Positions 50,729-56,872 of a stretch of DNA of 64,000 bases are shown here, one piece after another. The translations under genes were made by a program, and so were the position numbers. Numbering within the stretch: the stretch's first letter is position 1; each line of letters begins with the position of its first letter. Under the pieces are notes generated by a model. It was given only the letters and a program-made list of their open reading frames with translations, ran no database searches and was not told where the DNA came from. The DNA is from an uncultured Acidobacteriota bacterium (GTDB lineage: Bacteria; Acidobacteriota; Thermoanaerobaculia; Gp7-AA8), in contig CAVUKB010000005.1 in the NCBI GenBank assembly GCA_963741955.1, positions 388,994 to 452,993 on the forward strand, given 5' to 3'.

Positions 50729-51071
50729 AGTCTGCGCGATAGGAACGTCCGTCGCGAGAAAGCGAAGCAGCGAGGCCAAATTCGATCGGATTTGAGGTGC
50801 GTAGCGGTGGCTACTCGCCGAAAATCCGGACGAATTTGGACCGCTGATCCGCTTTCGCAGCAGGACAGTTTCTACCGCGCAGACTCCCAGGGAAGAACGG
50901 GCGAAGAGCCGCCGGGCGCAGGACCGCTATAATCGTCGCTGCCCGTCGCGGCGACACCCTTCGAACGAAACGGACTTCGTCGAACGATCGTGCCTGCCGC
51001 GGTCCACCAACCAATGGGAACGCGGGGCCGGCCCCGGGCCGTCCGTGGCGCTCCCGGGAGAACGAAACGAA

Positions 51072-52739
51072 ATGAGACTTGCCGTCCGCCTCTTCTTCAT
51101 CCTGTTCCTCTTGAGCCTTCCCTCCTTCGCACAACAGACCAAGCCGACGCGCCAGCGGGTCGAGAAAACTCCGCAGACGACCCGGTCGAAGCAACCCGCC
51201 GAGCAGTCTCCGCAAACCCGGCACTCGGAGCAAACCCCCGCACCGGAGTCGCACGTCTCCGCGATGCCGAATGCCGGGGGCCGCGATTTCCACTTCGACA
51301 TGACCGAACAGCCCCCGGTCGTGACGCATCACACCGCGACTGTCGGAGGAAAGACGATCCACTACACGGCCACCGCCGGCCGGCTCCCGATCAAGGATGC
51401 CGAGGGAAAGATCGAGGCGGAGATGTTTTTCGTCGCCTACACCCACGATGGAGCGGAGGCCGCCAGCCGGCCTCTCACGTTCGCCTTCAACGGGGGTCCC
51501 GGATCCGCATCGCTCTGGTTACACATGGGTGCGCTCGGCCCGCGCAAGGTCGCGCTGGAACCGGAGGGGTGGCTTCCACCTGCGCCATATCACCTGACGG
51601 ACAATCCGTACACGCCTCTCGACGTCACGGACCTCGTGGTGGTCGACGCGATCGGCACCGGATACAGCCGCCCCGCGGATGCCGCAGCCGGAAAGAAGTT
51701 CTGGAATCTTCCCGGAGACATCGAGTCGTTCGGGGAATTCATCCGCCTCTACATCAGCCGCTACGAGCGCTGGTCATCCCCTCTCTACCTCCTGGGCGAG
51801 AGCTACGGGACGACGCGTGCCGCGGGTATCTCGGGATACCTCACCGATCGCGGGATCAACTTCACCGGGATCATTCTCCTTTCCGAAGTGCTGAACTTCC
51901 AGACCCTGGAGTTCGCGAAGACGAACGACGTTCCGTACCCGCTGATCGTCCCGAGCTACACCATGATCGCGGCGTATCACGGAAAGCTCGCACCGGATCT
52001 GATGCAGGACCTCGCGAAGACGCGCGACGAAGTGACGCAGTGGGCGCTCGGACCGTATTGGGAAGCACTGAACAAAGGCGACGCGTTGACCCCGCAGGAG
52101 CGTGACGCCATCGCGACGCAGCTCGCGCGCTACACCGGTCTTACGAAGCAGATCGCCGATCTCGCGAACCTCCGCGTCGACGTCGGCACATTCACTCACT
52201 GGCTCCTCGCCGATCAGAAGCTGCGCGTCGGACGACTCGATGCGCGCTTCACCGGTCCGGATCCGAACGGCTGGATGGATACTCCGTTCTATGATCCGAG
52301 CGGCGGCGAGACCACCGCGCCGTTCACTTCGACGTTCTACGATTACGTCCGCCGCGACCTCGGCTACAAGGTCGACACGCCGTACTACACGTCCGCACGG
52401 CAGTCGGGGATGTTCAACTGGAGCTGGAACGCCCCGGCCGAAGGTCCGCGACGTCGCGGCGACGAGTCGGGCTATCCCGACACAGCATCGGCGCTCCGCG
52501 CCGCGATGGTGAAGAACCATTGGCTGAAGGTCCTGGTGATGGAGGGCTACTACGATCTCGCCACGCCGTTCGCTGCCGCGAACTACACCATGAACCACCT
52601 CGATCTTCCTGCGGAGTACCGGAAGAACATCTCATATGCGACGTACGAGGCGGGACACATGGTGTATCTCCGGATGAAGTCTCTCGAGAAGTTCCACAGC
52701 GACGTCGCGAACTTCATCCACGCGACCAGCGGACAATAG
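51072..52739 (+). CDS. Secreted serine carboxypeptidase, peptidase S10 family
   Basis: Signal peptide MRLAVRLFFILFLLSLPSFA. Catalytic Ser motif LLGESYGTTRA. His near the C-terminus (YEAGHMVY). Confidence 0.75.
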   Translation: MRLAVRLFFILFLLSLPSFAQQTKPTRQRVEKTPQTTRSKQPAEQSPQTRHSEQTPAPESHVSAMPNAGGRDFHFDMTEQPPVVTHHTATVGGKTIHYTATAGRLPIKDAEGKIEAEMFFVAYTHDGAEAASRPLTFAFNGGPGSASLWLHMGALGPRKVALEPEGWLPPAPYHLTDNPYTPLDVTDLVVVDAIGTGYSRPADAAAGKKFWNLPGDIESFGEFIRLYISRYERWSSPLYLLGESYGTTRAAGISGYLTDRGINFTGIILLSEVLNFQTLEFAKTNDVPYPLIVPSYTMIAAYHGKLAPDLMQDLAKTRDEVTQWALGPYWEALNKGDALTPQERDAIATQLARYTGLTKQIADLANLRVDVGTFTHWLLADQKLRVGRLDARFTGPDPNGWMDTPFYDPSGGETTAPFTSTFYDYVRRDLGYKVDTPYYTSARQSGMFNWSWNAPAEGPRRRGDESGYPDTASALRAAMVKNHWLKVLVMEGYYDLATPFAAANYTMNHLDLPAEYRKNISYATYEAGHMVYLRMKSLEKFHSDVANFIHATSGQ

Positions 52740-52740
52740 T

Positions 52741-53458
52741 TCCGCGAAGCGGGTCGCGCGTTCCGCGGGTCGCGCGTCCTGTGGGTCGCGCGTCTCGCGC
52801 GAGGCTCCCCGGCATCCTGCCGGGGAGCGATGGCGGCAACGCCACGCAAAACGCGCATCTCGCGCCGCAGTCCGTTCGTCTCTCGACTCTCGGGACGATC
52901 CTCGTATCTCGCACCAGGCAGGGCGGCGCGGGACGCCGCCCTGCATCGGGCGAGGACGCCCAACCCACGACTGTGGGTCGCGCGTCTCGCGCGAGGCTCC
53001 CCGGCATCCTGCCGGGGAGCGATGGCGGCAACCAAACGCGGATCGCTCCTCTCGCGCCGCAGTCCGTTCGTCTCTCGACTCTCGGGACGATCCTTGTATC
53101 TCGCACCAGGCAGGGCGGCGCGGGACGCCGCCCTGCATCGGGCGAGGACGCCCAACCCACGACTGTGGGTCGCGCGTCTCGCGCGAGGCTCCCCGGCATC
53201 CTGCCGGGGAGCGATGGCGGCAACCAAACGCGGATCGCTCCTCTCGCGCCGCAGTCCGTTCGTCTCTCGACTCTCGGGACGATCCTCGTATCTCGCACCA
53301 GGCAGGGCGGCGCGGGACGCCGCCCTGCATCGGGCGAGGACGCCCAACCCACTGGGCATCGGGCGAGGACGCCCAACCCACTGGGCATCGGACGGGACGT
53401 CCAACCCACGACTGTGGGTCGCGCGTCTCGCGCGAGGCTCCCCGGCATCCTGCCGGGG
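52741..53458. repeat. About 3.5 tandem copies of a ~190-bp unit ending in the hairpin ccccggcatcctgccgggg (hairpins at 52807, 53000, 53191, 53440)
   Basis: Seen directly. The array continues at 55263-55545 beyond the IS insertion. Confidence 0.9.
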
Positions 53459-53492
53459 ACTGGAGTTTGGCGTTTCTCGAGCAAGGCGCGAG

Positions 53493-54905
53493 CTACGAAG
53501 TGGCGTACTGGACAGCCATTTCGGGGGTGACAGCGGATTTCGAGCGCTTCAGGTGTCGTGCGACGGGGGTCTGGAAGTCGGTGAAATTGGGGGGTTCGAA
53601 GTTGCGGATGTGGCGAATGCAGGCGGATCGCATCGCGCGAAGGTACTGGCCGGTGGGTATTCGCCACTGATCGGGGATATCGTTGTCTCTCCACTTGGGC
53701 ATCAGTTCGGGGGGCGCAGTGGAGCCGAGGCCGAAGCAATCGGCGGCAGCGAGGAGCATCATCGAGTAGACGGCTACGGCGAAAGCGGGCAGCGAGTCGA
53801 CCGATCGCCGGTTGCGCACCTGCGCCTGGCCGACACCGAAGATCTGCTTTTCGTCGCGGTGATTGACCTCGATATCCCAGCGGCGGAAGTAGGCTTGGAC
53901 GAGCTCGACGAGCGAGAGTTTCAGGTCGGTACAGATCAGGAACGCCGGTTTGCGATACAGCAGGCGTGATTTCTTGCGGAGCCGATAGCCCAGTGGCCGG
54001 ATCACGACGAGCCGCAGAGGCAGTTCATAACCCGAAGTTTTCCAAAGCACGGGACCGATGGTCTTGATCGAACAGGCGTGTTCACGACCCGAGGCCCAGA
54101 CTTGGACCTGTTGCCAGTCGATGGATTGGTCCACGCGGAGTTGATCGGGTGTTGGGGCCTGATCGCCATACCAGCGCTTGCGTCCGCGAAGCGGTTGAGA
54201 GTTTGGAGGAAAGAACAGCTTCGCGTCGCCTCGGATGCGACCGATCAGGATCGTTCGTTCCGGCAAGTTCCGCAGAACCGTACGGTTGGTGTAACCGCCG
54301 TCAACCACCGGCATCAGCACGCGCTCGCTCGCTCCGAGCTGGTCAAAGTCCTTGCGAGTTTGGATCAGCAGACGCGTTGCACCGATGGAAAGATTCTGCT
54401 CTTTCTGCTGGCGACGATACTCGGCACGTTCCTGCTCGGTTGCTCCGGCCCCCGGGCGAACCGCCGGAGGCTGGTGATTGAACCGGATCGGGAAGCTGCG
54501 CGCCGGACCGGCAGACTGGCCAGTTAAAGGAACACTGATCGCAGCCTGAATGAACCGTTGGGCGCGGATCAAGTTCGTGTGGAAAGGCGGCGACATCGGA
54601 TCGCGCTGATAACTCACGCCTGGGATCTTCATGCCCGTCTTGCGCAACTTCGTGTCATCCAGCGGCAGCACCAGCGGTGCGTCGAGCGGCAAGTACGCGA
54701 GCAGGTGTCGTTCGATGACTCTGAACATCTCGCTCACATCGAACCGACCCTCCGAGAAAACGCGATAGTCTGCCGACCAGTCCTGCTGCGGATCGCGGCC
54801 TGCTTCAATCATTCCGCTTACCGTGTGTCGCCCGGTGCAGTTGAGCAGGCCGATGGCCAACCCACGAACCCGCTGAAGCACCCGAGCATCACAGGATCCA
54901 TTCAA
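53493..54905 (-). CDS. DDE transposase, IS4-like (YREK signature)
   Basis: 470 aa with VDGGY and YFRRWDIEVNHRDEKQ (Y-x2-R-x3-E-x6-K). Confidence 0.8.
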   Translation of the reverse strand: MNGSCDARVLQRVRGLAIGLLNCTGRHTVSGMIEAGRDPQQDWSADYRVFSEGRFDVSEMFRVIERHLLAYLPLDAPLVLPLDDTKLRKTGMKIPGVSYQRDPMSPPFHTNLIRAQRFIQAAISVPLTGQSAGPARSFPIRFNHQPPAVRPGAGATEQERAEYRRQQKEQNLSIGATRLLIQTRKDFDQLGASERVLMPVVDGGYTNRTVLRNLPERTILIGRIRGDAKLFFPPNSQPLRGRKRWYGDQAPTPDQLRVDQSIDWQQVQVWASGREHACSIKTIGPVLWKTSGYELPLRLVVIRPLGYRLRKKSRLLYRKPAFLICTDLKLSLVELVQAYFRRWDIEVNHRDEKQIFGVGQAQVRNRRSVDSLPAFAVAVYSMMLLAAADCFGLGSTAPPELMPKWRDNDIPDQWRIPTGQYLRAMRSACIRHIRNFEPPNFTDFQTPVARHLKRSKSAVTPEMAVQYATS

Positions 54906-54945
54906 TTCGTCGAAGATCGCGTTGAATGAGCGAAGAAGATTTCGA

Positions 54946-55155
54946 TCAGCGTTTTTTTTTGACCCGCTTCGCTTCGACGGTTCCGGTCGGATCCTTTGCC
55001 CGCTTGAGGATCAGCGTTCGCTTGTCCTCGATGACCCATTCGACGATCTCACCGCGAATGAATTCACAAGCTTGGGCCACGGCCGCGGGAAGGTTCACGT
55101 ACCACTGCCTGCTCTTTGCACGAGCGATCAGCTGCACTTTGGTTGGAAATCCCAT
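54946..55155 (-). CDS. AbrB/MazE-fold small DNA-binding protein (69 aa) carried inside the IS
   Basis: [54 protein letters not shown], a looped-hinge-helix-like pattern. The upstream in-frame extension of ORF 54946..55296 runs into the repeat and is rejected. Confidence 0.5.
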
Positions 55156-55262
55156 GGTGACCTCCTTCTGGTCTAGTGATATAACTAGATACCACGGGAC
55201 GAAAAAAAAGTCCAGAATTCCTGGACTTCCGCCCAACGACTCCGAGTTCCGCCAAACTCCAG

Positions 55263-55545
55263 TCCCCGGCATCCTGCCGGGGAGCGATGGCAGCAATCAA
55301 ACGCAGATCCCGCCTCTCGCGCCGCGGTCCGTTCGTCTCTCGACTCTCGGGACGATCCTTGTATCTCGCACCAGGCAGGGCGGCGCGGGACGCCGCCCTG
55401 CATCGGGCGAGGACGCCCAACCCACTGGGCACCGGACGGGATGTCCAACCCACTCGAGCATCGGACGGGACCTTCAGTCATCGAACAGGACGTCCAACCC
55501 GCTTGCCCGGGCTCGGGTTGAGCCCGGACCCACTCTCGCGAGATA
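55263..55545. repeat. Continuation (about 1.3 units) of the 190-bp repeat on the right flank of the IS. It ends in the hairpin ccgggctcgggttgagcccgg.
   Basis: The sequence matches the units at 52741-53458. Confidence 0.85.
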
Positions 55546-55567: not shown

Positions 55568-56872
55568 ATGCGTTCTCATCTCGCCCTCTTCACCATTCTC
55601 CTCGCCGCGTCGCTGCTCGTTCCGCAGGCTGCATCCGCAGCCGATGCCGCGCCCACGAACGTCCTCCTCCGCCCGGAGCGCGTCTTCGACGCCGTCAGCA
55701 CCACGCCGCACGACGGCTGGGTCGTCCTGGTCACCGGGGACCGCATCGCTGCAGTCGGACCGGCCGCCGAGGTGAAGGCACCCGCAGGGGCGCAGGTGAT
55801 CGACCTCCCGGGCATGACGCTTCTCCCGGGACTGATCGACGCGCACTCCCACATCTTCCTCCACCCCTACAACGAGACGCTCTGGAACGATCAAGTGCTG
55901 AAGGAAGCGCTCGCGTACCGGACCATCCTCGCGGTGAACCACTCGCGGGACACGCTGATGGCGGGATTCACTACGCTCCGCGATCTCGGAACCGAGGGGG
56001 CGGGTTACGCGGATCTCTCGGTGAAGCAGGCCATTGAAGAGGGACGCATCCCCGGACCGCGGCTTTTCGTTGCGACGCGCGCCATCGTGGCGACGGGAAG
56101 CTATGGCCCCGGACCACGTGGCTTCGCTCCGGAGTTCGTTCCGCCGAAAGGGGCGGAAGAAGTGAGCGGCACGGCGGAGATTCTCAAAGCCGTGCGCGAG
56201 CAGGTCGGACACGGCGCCGACTGGGTGAAGGTGTACGCCGACTACCGCCGCGGCCCCGGCGGGACGGCTGCGCCGACCTTCTCGCTCGACGAGTTGAAGA
56301 CGCTCGTCGATGAAGCACACAGCGCGGGACGCGAAGTCTCCGCACACGCGACCACAGCCGAAGGGATGCGACGCGCGGTGATGGCCGGCGTCGACACGAT
56401 CGAGCACGGCTACGGCGGGACGGACGACGTATTCAAACTGATGGCGGAGAAGGGCGTCGCGTTCTTCCCCACTCTCACTGCTGAAGAAGCGTACGGCGAA
56501 TACTTCGAGGGGTACAAGCGCGGCACGAAACCGCTCACGCCCGGGATGCAGCAGGCGCTGCACGCGTTTCAGCTGGCGATGAAGGACGGCGTGACCATCG
56601 GATGCGGCAGCGACGTCGGCGTTTTCACGCACGGCGAGAACTACCGCGAAGTCGAGTGGATGGTGAAAGGCGGCATGACTCCGGTCCAGGCGCTCATGGC
56701 CGCCACCGCGGTCGACGCAAAAGTCCTCGGGCAGCAGGACCGCTTCGGCCGCGTGGAGAAAGGCCTTCTCGCCGATCTCATCGCCGTCCCCGGCGACCCG
56801 ACGAAGGACATCACCGCGATCGAGACCGTCCCGTTCGTGATGAAAGGCGGAGTGATCTACAAGCGGCCCTGA
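55568..56872 (+). CDS. Secreted amidohydrolase family protein (imidazolonepropionase / Xaa-Pro dipeptidase-like metal hydrolase)
   Basis: Signal peptide [24 protein letters not shown]. Metal-ligand motifs HSH...H...H...D (LIDAHSHIF). The 648-aa ORF's N-terminal extension is repeat-derived and rejected. Confidence 0.75.

Follow-up and report, generated by a model that had tools for sequence, protein, structure and literature searches.

An IS701-family insertion sequence flanked by a duplicated hairpin in an Acidobacteriota repeat array, and insertion at hairpins across its clade

Why should one and the same hairpin adjoin both ends of an insertion sequence (IS)? The question is raised by a 64-kb window, the whole stretch of 64,000 nucleotides analyzed here and the reference for all coordinates below, taken from contig CAVUKB010000005.1 of an uncultured Acidobacteriota bacterium. 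In this window, an IS with its genes on the minus strand interrupts unit 4 of an array of 192-bp tandem repeats. A first-pass annotation of the same DNA had recognized the IS within a tandem array of ≈190-bp units and had offered two explanations for the flanking hairpins: the target duplication might be of unusual length, or the IS might seek out this hairpin. We find that both hold at once. The element is assigned by its sequence to the IS701 family, it is bordered by a 21-bp target-site duplication (TSD) that contains the hairpin, and its relatives insert at hairpin-forming palindromes regardless of sequence, with direct duplication of the whole hairpin. We put the probability of the explanation developed here, taken as a whole, at roughly 80%. 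Its core, which joins an IS701-family element, a 21-bp hairpin TSD, and hairpin targeting throughout the clade, we hold with high confidence. The element, its borders, and the interrupted array are as follows.

53460 to 55262, minus strand: insertion sequence of 1803 bp, CTGGAGTTTGGCG...CGCCAAACTCCAG, with the ends CTGGAG...CTCCAG
53460 to 53472, plus strand: terminal inverted repeat at the right end relative to the transposase gene, 13 bp, perfect
55250 to 55262, plus strand: terminal inverted repeat at the left end, 13 bp, perfect
53439 to 53459, plus strand: left copy of the TSD, 21 bp, TCCCCGGCATCCTGCCGGGGA, made up of the 19-nt hairpin and one flanking nucleotide at either end
55263 to 55283, plus strand: right copy of the TSD, identical to the left copy
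52779 to 53459, plus strand: left part of the array, with units 1 to 3 at 52779 to 53354, 29-bp sub-repeats at 53327 to 53409, and the first 48 bp of unit 4 at 53412 to 53459
55263 to 55500, plus strand: right part of the array, with the rest of unit 4 at 55263 to 55425 (96% identical to unit positions 28 to 190), followed by degenerate 20- to 29-bp sub-repeats

Ends of the element and the duplicated hairpin

We place the ends of the element at 53460 and 55262 because of an independent assembly, the termini of related elements, and the alignment of the flanks to intact array units. Logan contig L161 (SRR27973573), which was assembled independently, consists of exactly these 1803 bases at 100% identity; a contig that ends at the IS ends is what a de Bruijn assembly is expected to produce if the element has more than one flanking context in that sample. 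The relatives that we retrieved all start and end with CTGGAGTTTGG...CCAAACTCCAG or with a one- or two-base variant of it. When the flanks are aligned to uninterrupted units, the left flank ends at column 48 and the right flank begins at column 28, and the overlap of columns 28 to 48 therefore represents a 21-bp duplication. These boundaries revise several figures of the first-pass annotation, which had given an 1804-bp element with perfect 14-bp inverted repeats and a 19-bp hairpin directly abutting both ends. Since the element measures 1803 bp, the outermost a and t of those 14-bp repeats are target DNA. The inverted repeats at the two ends are indeed perfect, but they comprise 13 bp (ACTGGAGTTTGGCG at both ends, inverted, with 0 mismatches; 17 of 20 positions match when extended). 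Direct copies of the hairpin do adjoin the element, at 53440 to 53458 and 55264 to 55282, but the duplicated segment extends to 21 bp. Within the window, BLAST finds one copy only of the element, and its GC content is 59% vs 64% for the window.

The array itself provides the reference for the uninterrupted state. Its period is 192 bp by TRF, with 3.0 copies at 52779 to 53352 and 97% matches, and it resumes to the right of the element, in agreement with the interrupted array of the first-pass annotation. Intact units carry a single hairpin at the insertion position and are thus paralogous proxies for the empty site, which is predicted to read ...GAGGCTCCCCGGCATCCTGCCGGGGAGCGATGGCAGCAATC... with one hairpin. 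In the window, the 19-nt hairpin CCCCGGCATCCTGCCGGGG is present in five copies, all of them within the array region and the IS-flanking pair among them; shuffled sequences give a chance expectation of 0.01 matches. In full, the palindrome of the array spans 25 nt and consists of a stem of 11 bp and a loop of 3 nt; folded as DNA, it reaches −15.4 kcal/mol (z = −6.2). The IS junctions in the window fall 2 bp inside this stem.

A different origin for the paired hairpins would be the element itself, which might carry them as terminal hairpins, or else recombination or assembly error might have produced the arrangement. In keeping with the former, hairpin and inverted repeat together form a 43-nt inverted repeat that is 86% complementary, and in keeping with the latter, some metagenome contigs have mismatched flanks. 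The flanking copies are direct rather than inverted, however, and the loop reads TCC on both sides. A single hairpin lies at the same place in intact array units, identical IS copies in one genome carry different hairpins, and the independent assembly ends exactly at CTGGAG...CTCCAG. Taken together, these observations make either version of this explanation very improbable, and we treat the hairpin as duplicated target DNA in what follows.

With perfect inverted repeats, a perfect TSD, two intact open reading frames (ORFs), and a copy identical to an independent assembly, a recent insertion is plausible. The element is an intact and probably active member of the IS701 family, whose DDE transposases are related to those of IS4. 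The insertion in the window is in itself an ordinary genomic event and a polymorphic marker within a repeat array; its wider interest is that it exposes a widespread clade with structure-directed insertion.

Hairpin targeting among related elements

Relatives of the element were gathered as 80 loci from a scan of GTDB genomes and 80 more from a scan of metagenomes. They point to a large clade in environmental bacteria that spans Acidobacteriota, Planctomycetota, Verrucomicrobiota, Kiritimatiellota, and others. Members share the CTGGAGTTTGG termini, and their targets are hairpin-forming palindromes of unrelated sequence, the whole hairpin being duplicated. About 40 insertions of related elements, from four bacterial phyla, duplicate the target hairpin, and the relatives with hairpin TSDs are 37 to 82% identical to the window element and have the same termini. 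Long-read metagenome-assembled genomes (MAGs) from Opitutales and Acidobacteriota hold the element in multiple copies, with both flanks readable for each copy. In the Opitutales MAG, each of the 16 full copies lies between perfect direct repeats of 18 to 25 bp, and the duplicated hairpin differs from copy to copy. In the Acidobacteriota MAG (L007 to L017), all six copies lie in hairpins that resemble repetitive extragenic palindromes (REPs), one of them with a single mismatch, and the same hairpins are found unoccupied nearby, in inverted pairs ≈65 nt apart that resemble bacterial interspersed mosaic elements (BIMEs). A hairpin TSD of 23 bp borders a relative with 62% identity on a 66-kb contig, and four different hairpins are found beside the closest relative (82% identity) in different contigs. 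Relatives with the same termini (the 16 Opitutales copies, the six Acidobacteriota copies, and single copies) are thus bordered by hairpin duplications and not by short, unrelated repeats, which bears out the targeting that the first-pass annotation had raised as a possibility.

The relationship between hairpin and junction can be given in numbers. A perfect stem of at least 6 bp that starts no more than 3 nt from the IS end is present in 86% of 215 IS flanks, compared with 2.4% of 845 control positions; the commonest offset of these hairpins is 1 nt and their commonest loop length 3 nt. TSD statistics were derived from 40 distinct insertions with matching flanks, for which we reconstructed the empty sites. 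The TSDs are 12 to 28 bp long, most often 21 to 23 bp, and the dyad axis coincides with the TSD center (n = 40). Pairing between symmetric positions is at chance (7 to 13 of 40) for six positions outside the TSD and for its outermost base, and it leaps to 34 to 40 of 38 to 40 sites (89–100%) over the next seven positions inward, with 37 of 40 at index 1. The stems differ in sequence and yet retain complementarity, which is covariation-type evidence for intrastrand pairing. The rule that describes these insertions is that the TSD equals 1 nt, the stem-loop, and 1 nt more, with the junction set by the foot of the stem and in most cases 1 nt beyond it.

The same measurements bear on whether a fixed ruler could suffice, that is, an unusually long stagger of ≈20 bp in B-form DNA combined with a palindrome preference that comes from a two-fold symmetric transpososome, with no hairpin or cruciform being formed. 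DDE transposons commonly show a weak palindromic consensus at their targets, TSD lengths do cluster at 21 to 23 bp, and the cut lies inside a longer palindrome in the window and in L056, L044, and L072, all of which would suit such a ruler. TSDs of 12 to 28 bp would not, since a 16-bp spread implies very different helical phases for the two scissile phosphates. Moreover, the edge of pairing follows the edge of the TSD, from chance at index 0 to 37 of 40 at index 1, and the stems have only self-complementarity in common, which protein read-out of B-DNA leaves unexplained. We judge a fixed ruler to be improbable.

Because self-complementarity is the only conserved property and the TSD varies by 16 bp, the target is most simply read as an intrastrand-paired structure, and the symmetric joining of both strands makes an extruded cruciform the simplest candidate. 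We propose that the transposase recognizes the shape of its target, most likely a cruciform extruded from supercoiled DNA. The IS ends would be joined ≈1 nt outside the two stem feet, at positions that would lie ≈2 nt apart across the four-way junction. Reabsorption of the cruciform and gap repair would then copy the whole stem-loop to both sides of the element, so that TSD length would track hairpin size without a fixed ruler. Duplication of an entire stem-loop with this geometry has been sketched as a hypothetical pathway open to DDE elements in a paper on IS1272 (PMC5678879). For the cruciform mechanism specifically, we consider the odds to be slightly better than even. That the clade uses a previously undescribed form of target capture, in which an extruded cruciform of any sequence would lead to a hairpin duplication of variable length, is a more tentative proposal, to which we give somewhat less than an even chance.

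Hairpins might also form on transient single-stranded DNA, either on the lagging-strand template or in a transcription bubble, and be captured there as happens with other hairpin-dependent mobile elements. Stems of 6 to 12 bp with loops of 2 to 4 nt are stable in single-stranded form (−15.4 kcal/mol for the window hairpin) and are short for spontaneous cruciform extrusion, and REP-like and terminator-like hairpins are the usual targets. Direct duplication of a whole hairpin, however, requires symmetric strand transfer to both strands, for which a four-way junction is the simpler substrate. The 16 copies in the 5.7-Mb Opitutales contig also lie in mixed orientation with no obvious two-replichore pattern, although a near-symmetric target is not expected to impose an orientation. 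Capture on single-stranded DNA seems to us unlikely, if less so than a fixed ruler.

Several considerations weigh against recognition of an extruded cruciform and, in part, against the general rule. Cruciform recognition is deduced from patterns in sequences, and the flank evidence comes from relatives plus the one copy of the exact IS in the window. The palindrome runs past the TSD in four cases, namely the window (25 nt vs 21 bp), L044, L056, and L072, so that the cut is not always at the last base pair and either a size limit or partial extrusion must be assumed. Finally, many short-read metagenome contigs carry different or inverted hairpins on the two sides of the element, with a hairpin still present on both flanks. 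Given the consistency of the long-read assemblies, we attribute such mismatched flanks to recombination among IS copies or to chimeric assembly across the repeated element. In L087, L090, and L091, the right IS flank is the reverse complement of the left flank, and in two of these contigs the inversion extends beyond the hairpin. It is probably an assembler strand flip within the palindrome, and these contigs serve as a caution that short-read contigs across the element are unreliable.

The nearest functional precedent for a DDE element that inserts at hairpins of any sequence is IS1272/TnSha1 of the IS1182 family. These elements target hairpin-forming inverted repeats without primary-sequence specificity and prefer terminators and intergenic hairpins (PMC4923244, PMC5678879). 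They delete or replace the stem-loop and leave no TSD, and a cruciform model has been proposed for them (PMC4923244, PMC5678879). Some IS1182 members are described as targeting palindromes in a review cited by these papers (PMC4923244, PMC5678879). Unlike IS1272, which deletes the hairpin, the present clade duplicates it precisely, and the transposases are unrelated at the level of hidden Markov models (HMMs); the clade is thus a counterpart to IS1272, with the opposite outcome in an unrelated transposase family.

Other insertion sequences are known for their use of REPs. IS1397 and ISKpn1 (IS3 family) insert into the loop, produce TSDs of 3 to 4 bp, and are specific for the REP sequence of the host, and IS110 elements such as ISPpu10 use a DEDD recombinase with a bridge RNA and are not known to produce a TSD. 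The present clade resembles these REP-targeting elements in that it inserts into repetitive extragenic palindromes, the targets in the Acidobacteriota MAG being REP/BIME-like pairs, and it differs from them in that it accepts any hairpin sequence and duplicates the whole hairpin. At positions 273 to 896 of L162, the 82%-identical relative adjoins a 207-aa Y1_Tnp (PF01797) gene that could encode a REP-associated tyrosine transposase. This neighbor and the BIME-like target pairs in the Acidobacteriota MAG hint at a clade that exploits REP systems. A search of the full-text literature found no description of hairpin-duplicating IS701 elements, with ISfinder and TnPedia lying outside that search and an existing entry there being possible.

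Whereas a fixed geometry normally determines how long the TSD of a DDE transposase is, TSD length in this clade varies with hairpin size. The insertions thereby offer comparative evidence, of the covariation type, for the reading of non-B DNA structure by a transposase in vivo. If cruciform capture is true, they would also constitute a natural record of sites at which cruciforms form in vivo, and the enzyme would be a structure-specific integrase. Hairpin targeting may in addition steer insertions to REP-like or terminator-like intergenic sites, which could explain how one genome holds at least 16 copies. A test for open frames across the reconstructed empty sites is a poor guide to their intergenic character, given that spurious open frames in such GC-rich genomes extend even across the site in the window, which is known to be intergenic. 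In practical terms, standard annotation pipelines that seek direct repeats of 2 to 14 bp will misplace the ends of these elements.

A split transposase gene with a conserved A9 run

The coding capacity of the element is divided between two ORFs, which overlap at a run of nine adenines.

53493 to 54905, minus strand: orfB, the DDE catalytic part, 470 aa from the first TTG; its frame is open upstream to 54962
54946 to 55155, minus strand: orfA, 69 aa, ending ...KRVKKKR before the stop codon
54952 to 54960, minus strand: A9 run (read as T9 on the plus strand) where orfA meets orfB, the proposed transcriptional-slippage site

The first-pass annotation had described a 470-aa DDE transposase with a YREK motif, and this description is upheld. 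The orfB product matches Pfam DDE_5 (E = 1.4e-16) and contains the signature Y-(2)-R-(3)-E-(6)-K as YFRRWDIEVNHRDEK; across 17 homologues, the catalytic residues D83/D84, D202, and E346 do not vary, nor does Y339-R342-E346-K353. The accompanying label of IS4-like is acceptable, in that IS701 is related to IS4, but imprecise. NCBIfam model NF049999 (transpos_IS701_3) scores 171.9 bits against a cutoff of 170, a narrow margin, whereas the IS4 models of NCBIfam reach 16 to 35 bits vs cutoffs of 115 to 250. The IS1634 model NF033559 scores 15.1 bits vs a cutoff of 100, and other IS701 models also fall far under their cutoffs. No IS1182 model appears among the NCBIfam matches at E ≤ 0.1, and no IS1182-type Pfam domain is present. 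On the basis of these profile matches, we assign the transposase to the IS701 family, related to IS4.

For OrfA, a SpoVT/AbrB-type DNA-binding domain is the likely identity. Its 471 homologues have 27 invariant columns, and the profile PF04014 (MazE/SpoVT-AbrB) is matched by 25 of 37 OrfA relatives at E ≤ 0.05, with a best value of 8.5e-6. The protein encoded in the window fits this identity less readily. It has no Pfam match at E ≤ 0.01, and its fold search is not significant: the AF2 monomer has a pLDDT of 64, and the top Foldseek matches include AbrB, SpoVT, MazE, C56, and C68, all with E ≥ 0.76. The earlier description of a 69-aa AbrB/MazE-like ORF is therefore weakly supported, through the relatives but not by the window protein. 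A sequence search of the PDB gave no match for OrfA and no meaningful match for orfB.

What the first-pass annotation missed is the A9 recoding site that joins orfA and orfB. The run encodes the last codons of orfA (...KRV KKK R stop), and the orfB frame, open beyond its first start codon in the upstream direction, continues through it. We assigned the relation of the two frames by homology-defined frames in 104 distinct related elements. The junction carries A9 in 83 of them and A8 in eight, and it lacks a run in the 13 most distant. Of the 83 elements with A9, 57 have orfB in the −1 frame and 26, the window element among them, in the +1 frame; none has it in frame. The orfA stop codon falls 1 to 2 codons past the run in most relatives, and the length and position of the A9 run are kept while the surrounding protein falls to 45% identity. 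No fused ORF is present among the 120 best transposase homologues. Removal of one A produces a 553-aa OrfAB that scores 176.7 bits on NF049999, with a match that starts at profile position 2 and, in the protein, ahead of the residue for the TTG. Because the match to the IS701 HMM extends upstream of the TTG, the fused protein is supported as the real transposase.

Runs of 9A in IS elements are established sites of slippage (PMC1088944), and a conserved homopolymer that serves both frame relations is a slippage signature described for IS elements (PMC1088944). The conservation of A9 together with the occurrence of both orfB frames therefore indicates transcriptional slippage, which we regard as likely. 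RNA polymerase would slip on the A9 run, and an mRNA with A8 (or A11) would fuse orfA to orfB. In the window copy, loss of one A would join OrfA, as an N-terminal DNA-binding module, to OrfB in a 553-aa transposase, and the unslipped mRNA would yield OrfA alone, probably as a regulator. A reservation is that the choice of slippage over ribosomal frameshifting is our interpretation of this conservation pattern. The IS elements that Baranov et al. list (2005, PMC1088944) are those of Deinococcus, Mesorhizobium, Nostoc, Streptococcus, and Sulfolobus. The present clade is like them in that orfA and orfB overlap at A9 (occasionally A8), with the length and position of the run conserved among diverged homologues, and unlike them in having both −1 and +1 arrangements among close relatives. 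The literature yielded no report of slippage for this clade. In L019, L039, L040, L049, L055, L138, L145, and L158, A8 replaces A9, and orfB is still not in frame; these may be real variants, as 8A was also seen by Baranov et al., or homopolymer errors. Standard annotation pipelines will label orfB in elements of this clade as a pseudogene or as a stand-alone gene.

Comparison with the family as usually understood sharpens the distinctive features of the clade. The target consensus of the IS701 family is YTAR. Classical members have a TSD of exactly 4 bp and a single ORF, and most are without the Y of YREK (De Palmenaer et al. 2008, PMC2266710). The present clade is similar in its DDE transposase, which is matched by the IS701 HMM and Pfam DDE_5, in its terminal inverted repeats, and in its length of 1.4 to 1.9 kb. 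It differs in its hairpin TSDs of 12 to 28 bp (21 bp in the window), in the split orfA/orfB arrangement with A9, in an additional, probably AbrB-like N-terminal module, and in a complete YREK. The complete Y-(2)-R-(3)-E-(6)-K is shared with IS4 sensu stricto, from which the element departs in HMM scores that are below cutoff and in a TSD of 21 bp vs about 7 to 13 bp for IS4.

An outlying comparison is provided by an IS701-like element of Microvirga ossetica (25% identity), which has near-identical termini, CTTGAGTTTGGCC...GGCCAAACTCCAG, and 5-bp TSDs (TTGAG and CTTAG). Its ends, CTTGAGTTTGGCC / CTGGAGTTTGGCC, are family-like when set beside the perfect 13 bp of the window element within CTGGAGTTTGGCG. 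Since 5-bp TSDs occur here with the GAGTTTGG terminus, the terminus is older than hairpin targeting. The Microvirga plasmids NZ_CP016618.1 (L169) and NZ_CP016617.1 (L170) are linked by a 1751-bp match, 99.8% identical, that contains the IS701-like element, and a search of plasmid proteins found only relatives at the level of 25% identity.

Noncoding features of the element and the surrounding array

Two further features lie between the left end of the element and orfA.

55198 to 55230, minus strand: hairpin with a T8 run behind it that resembles a terminator; a consensus scan places it just within the left end, upstream of orfA
55172 to 55189, minus strand: palindrome TCTAGTTATATCACTAGA, 16 nt (10–25 nt) upstream of the start codon of orfA and closely preceding its ribosome-binding site

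The terminator-like hairpin could block read-through transcription from outside the element, and T7 to T8 runs occur at a similar position in several relatives. The palindrome has the form CTAG-N8-CTAG, which is kept in all 12 relatives inspected despite diverged neighboring noncoding DNA. OrfA, as a probably AbrB-like protein, may use it as an operator, or it may be part of the promoter; a scan for sigma-70 promoters found nothing. An end-like motif is also present inside the element. The invariant OrfA peptide PTKVQ, in the first codons of orfA (window positions 55132 to 55142, minus strand), is encoded as CCAAAGTGCAG or CCAAAGTCCAG, which differ from the right IS end CCAAACTCCAG at only 1 to 2 of 11 bases. 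The motif is also found in L038, L044, L045, L071, L106, L108, L117, and L131, and it could be a coding coincidence or an internal binding site for the transposase. We found no derivatives with the same ends that resemble miniature inverted-repeat transposable elements; the pairs at short distance are this internal end-like motif in orfA.

The array lies between a peptidase S10 gene (51045 to 52739, plus strand) and an amidohydrolase gene (55568 to 56872, plus strand), both identified with Pfam. It has no Rfam match and no further copy within the window. The single Rfam hit from a scan of array and IS, RsmW, was rejected as sub-threshold, at 23 bits vs a gathering threshold of 52. A protein-coding repeat was considered, given that 192 is a multiple of 3, and rejected on reading the translations, which look R-rich and of low complexity in all frames, between two well-supported genes. 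Sub-repeats of 29 bp and 16 bp are also held within the array, and the degenerate 20- to 29-bp sub-repeats at its end read GCATCGGGCGAGGACGCCCAACCCACTGG. Each 192-bp unit folds into three hairpins, with z = −5.3 for the whole unit. One of these, at 52908 to 52954, is stronger (−22.9 kcal/mol) than the targeted hairpin and yet was not hit by the IS.

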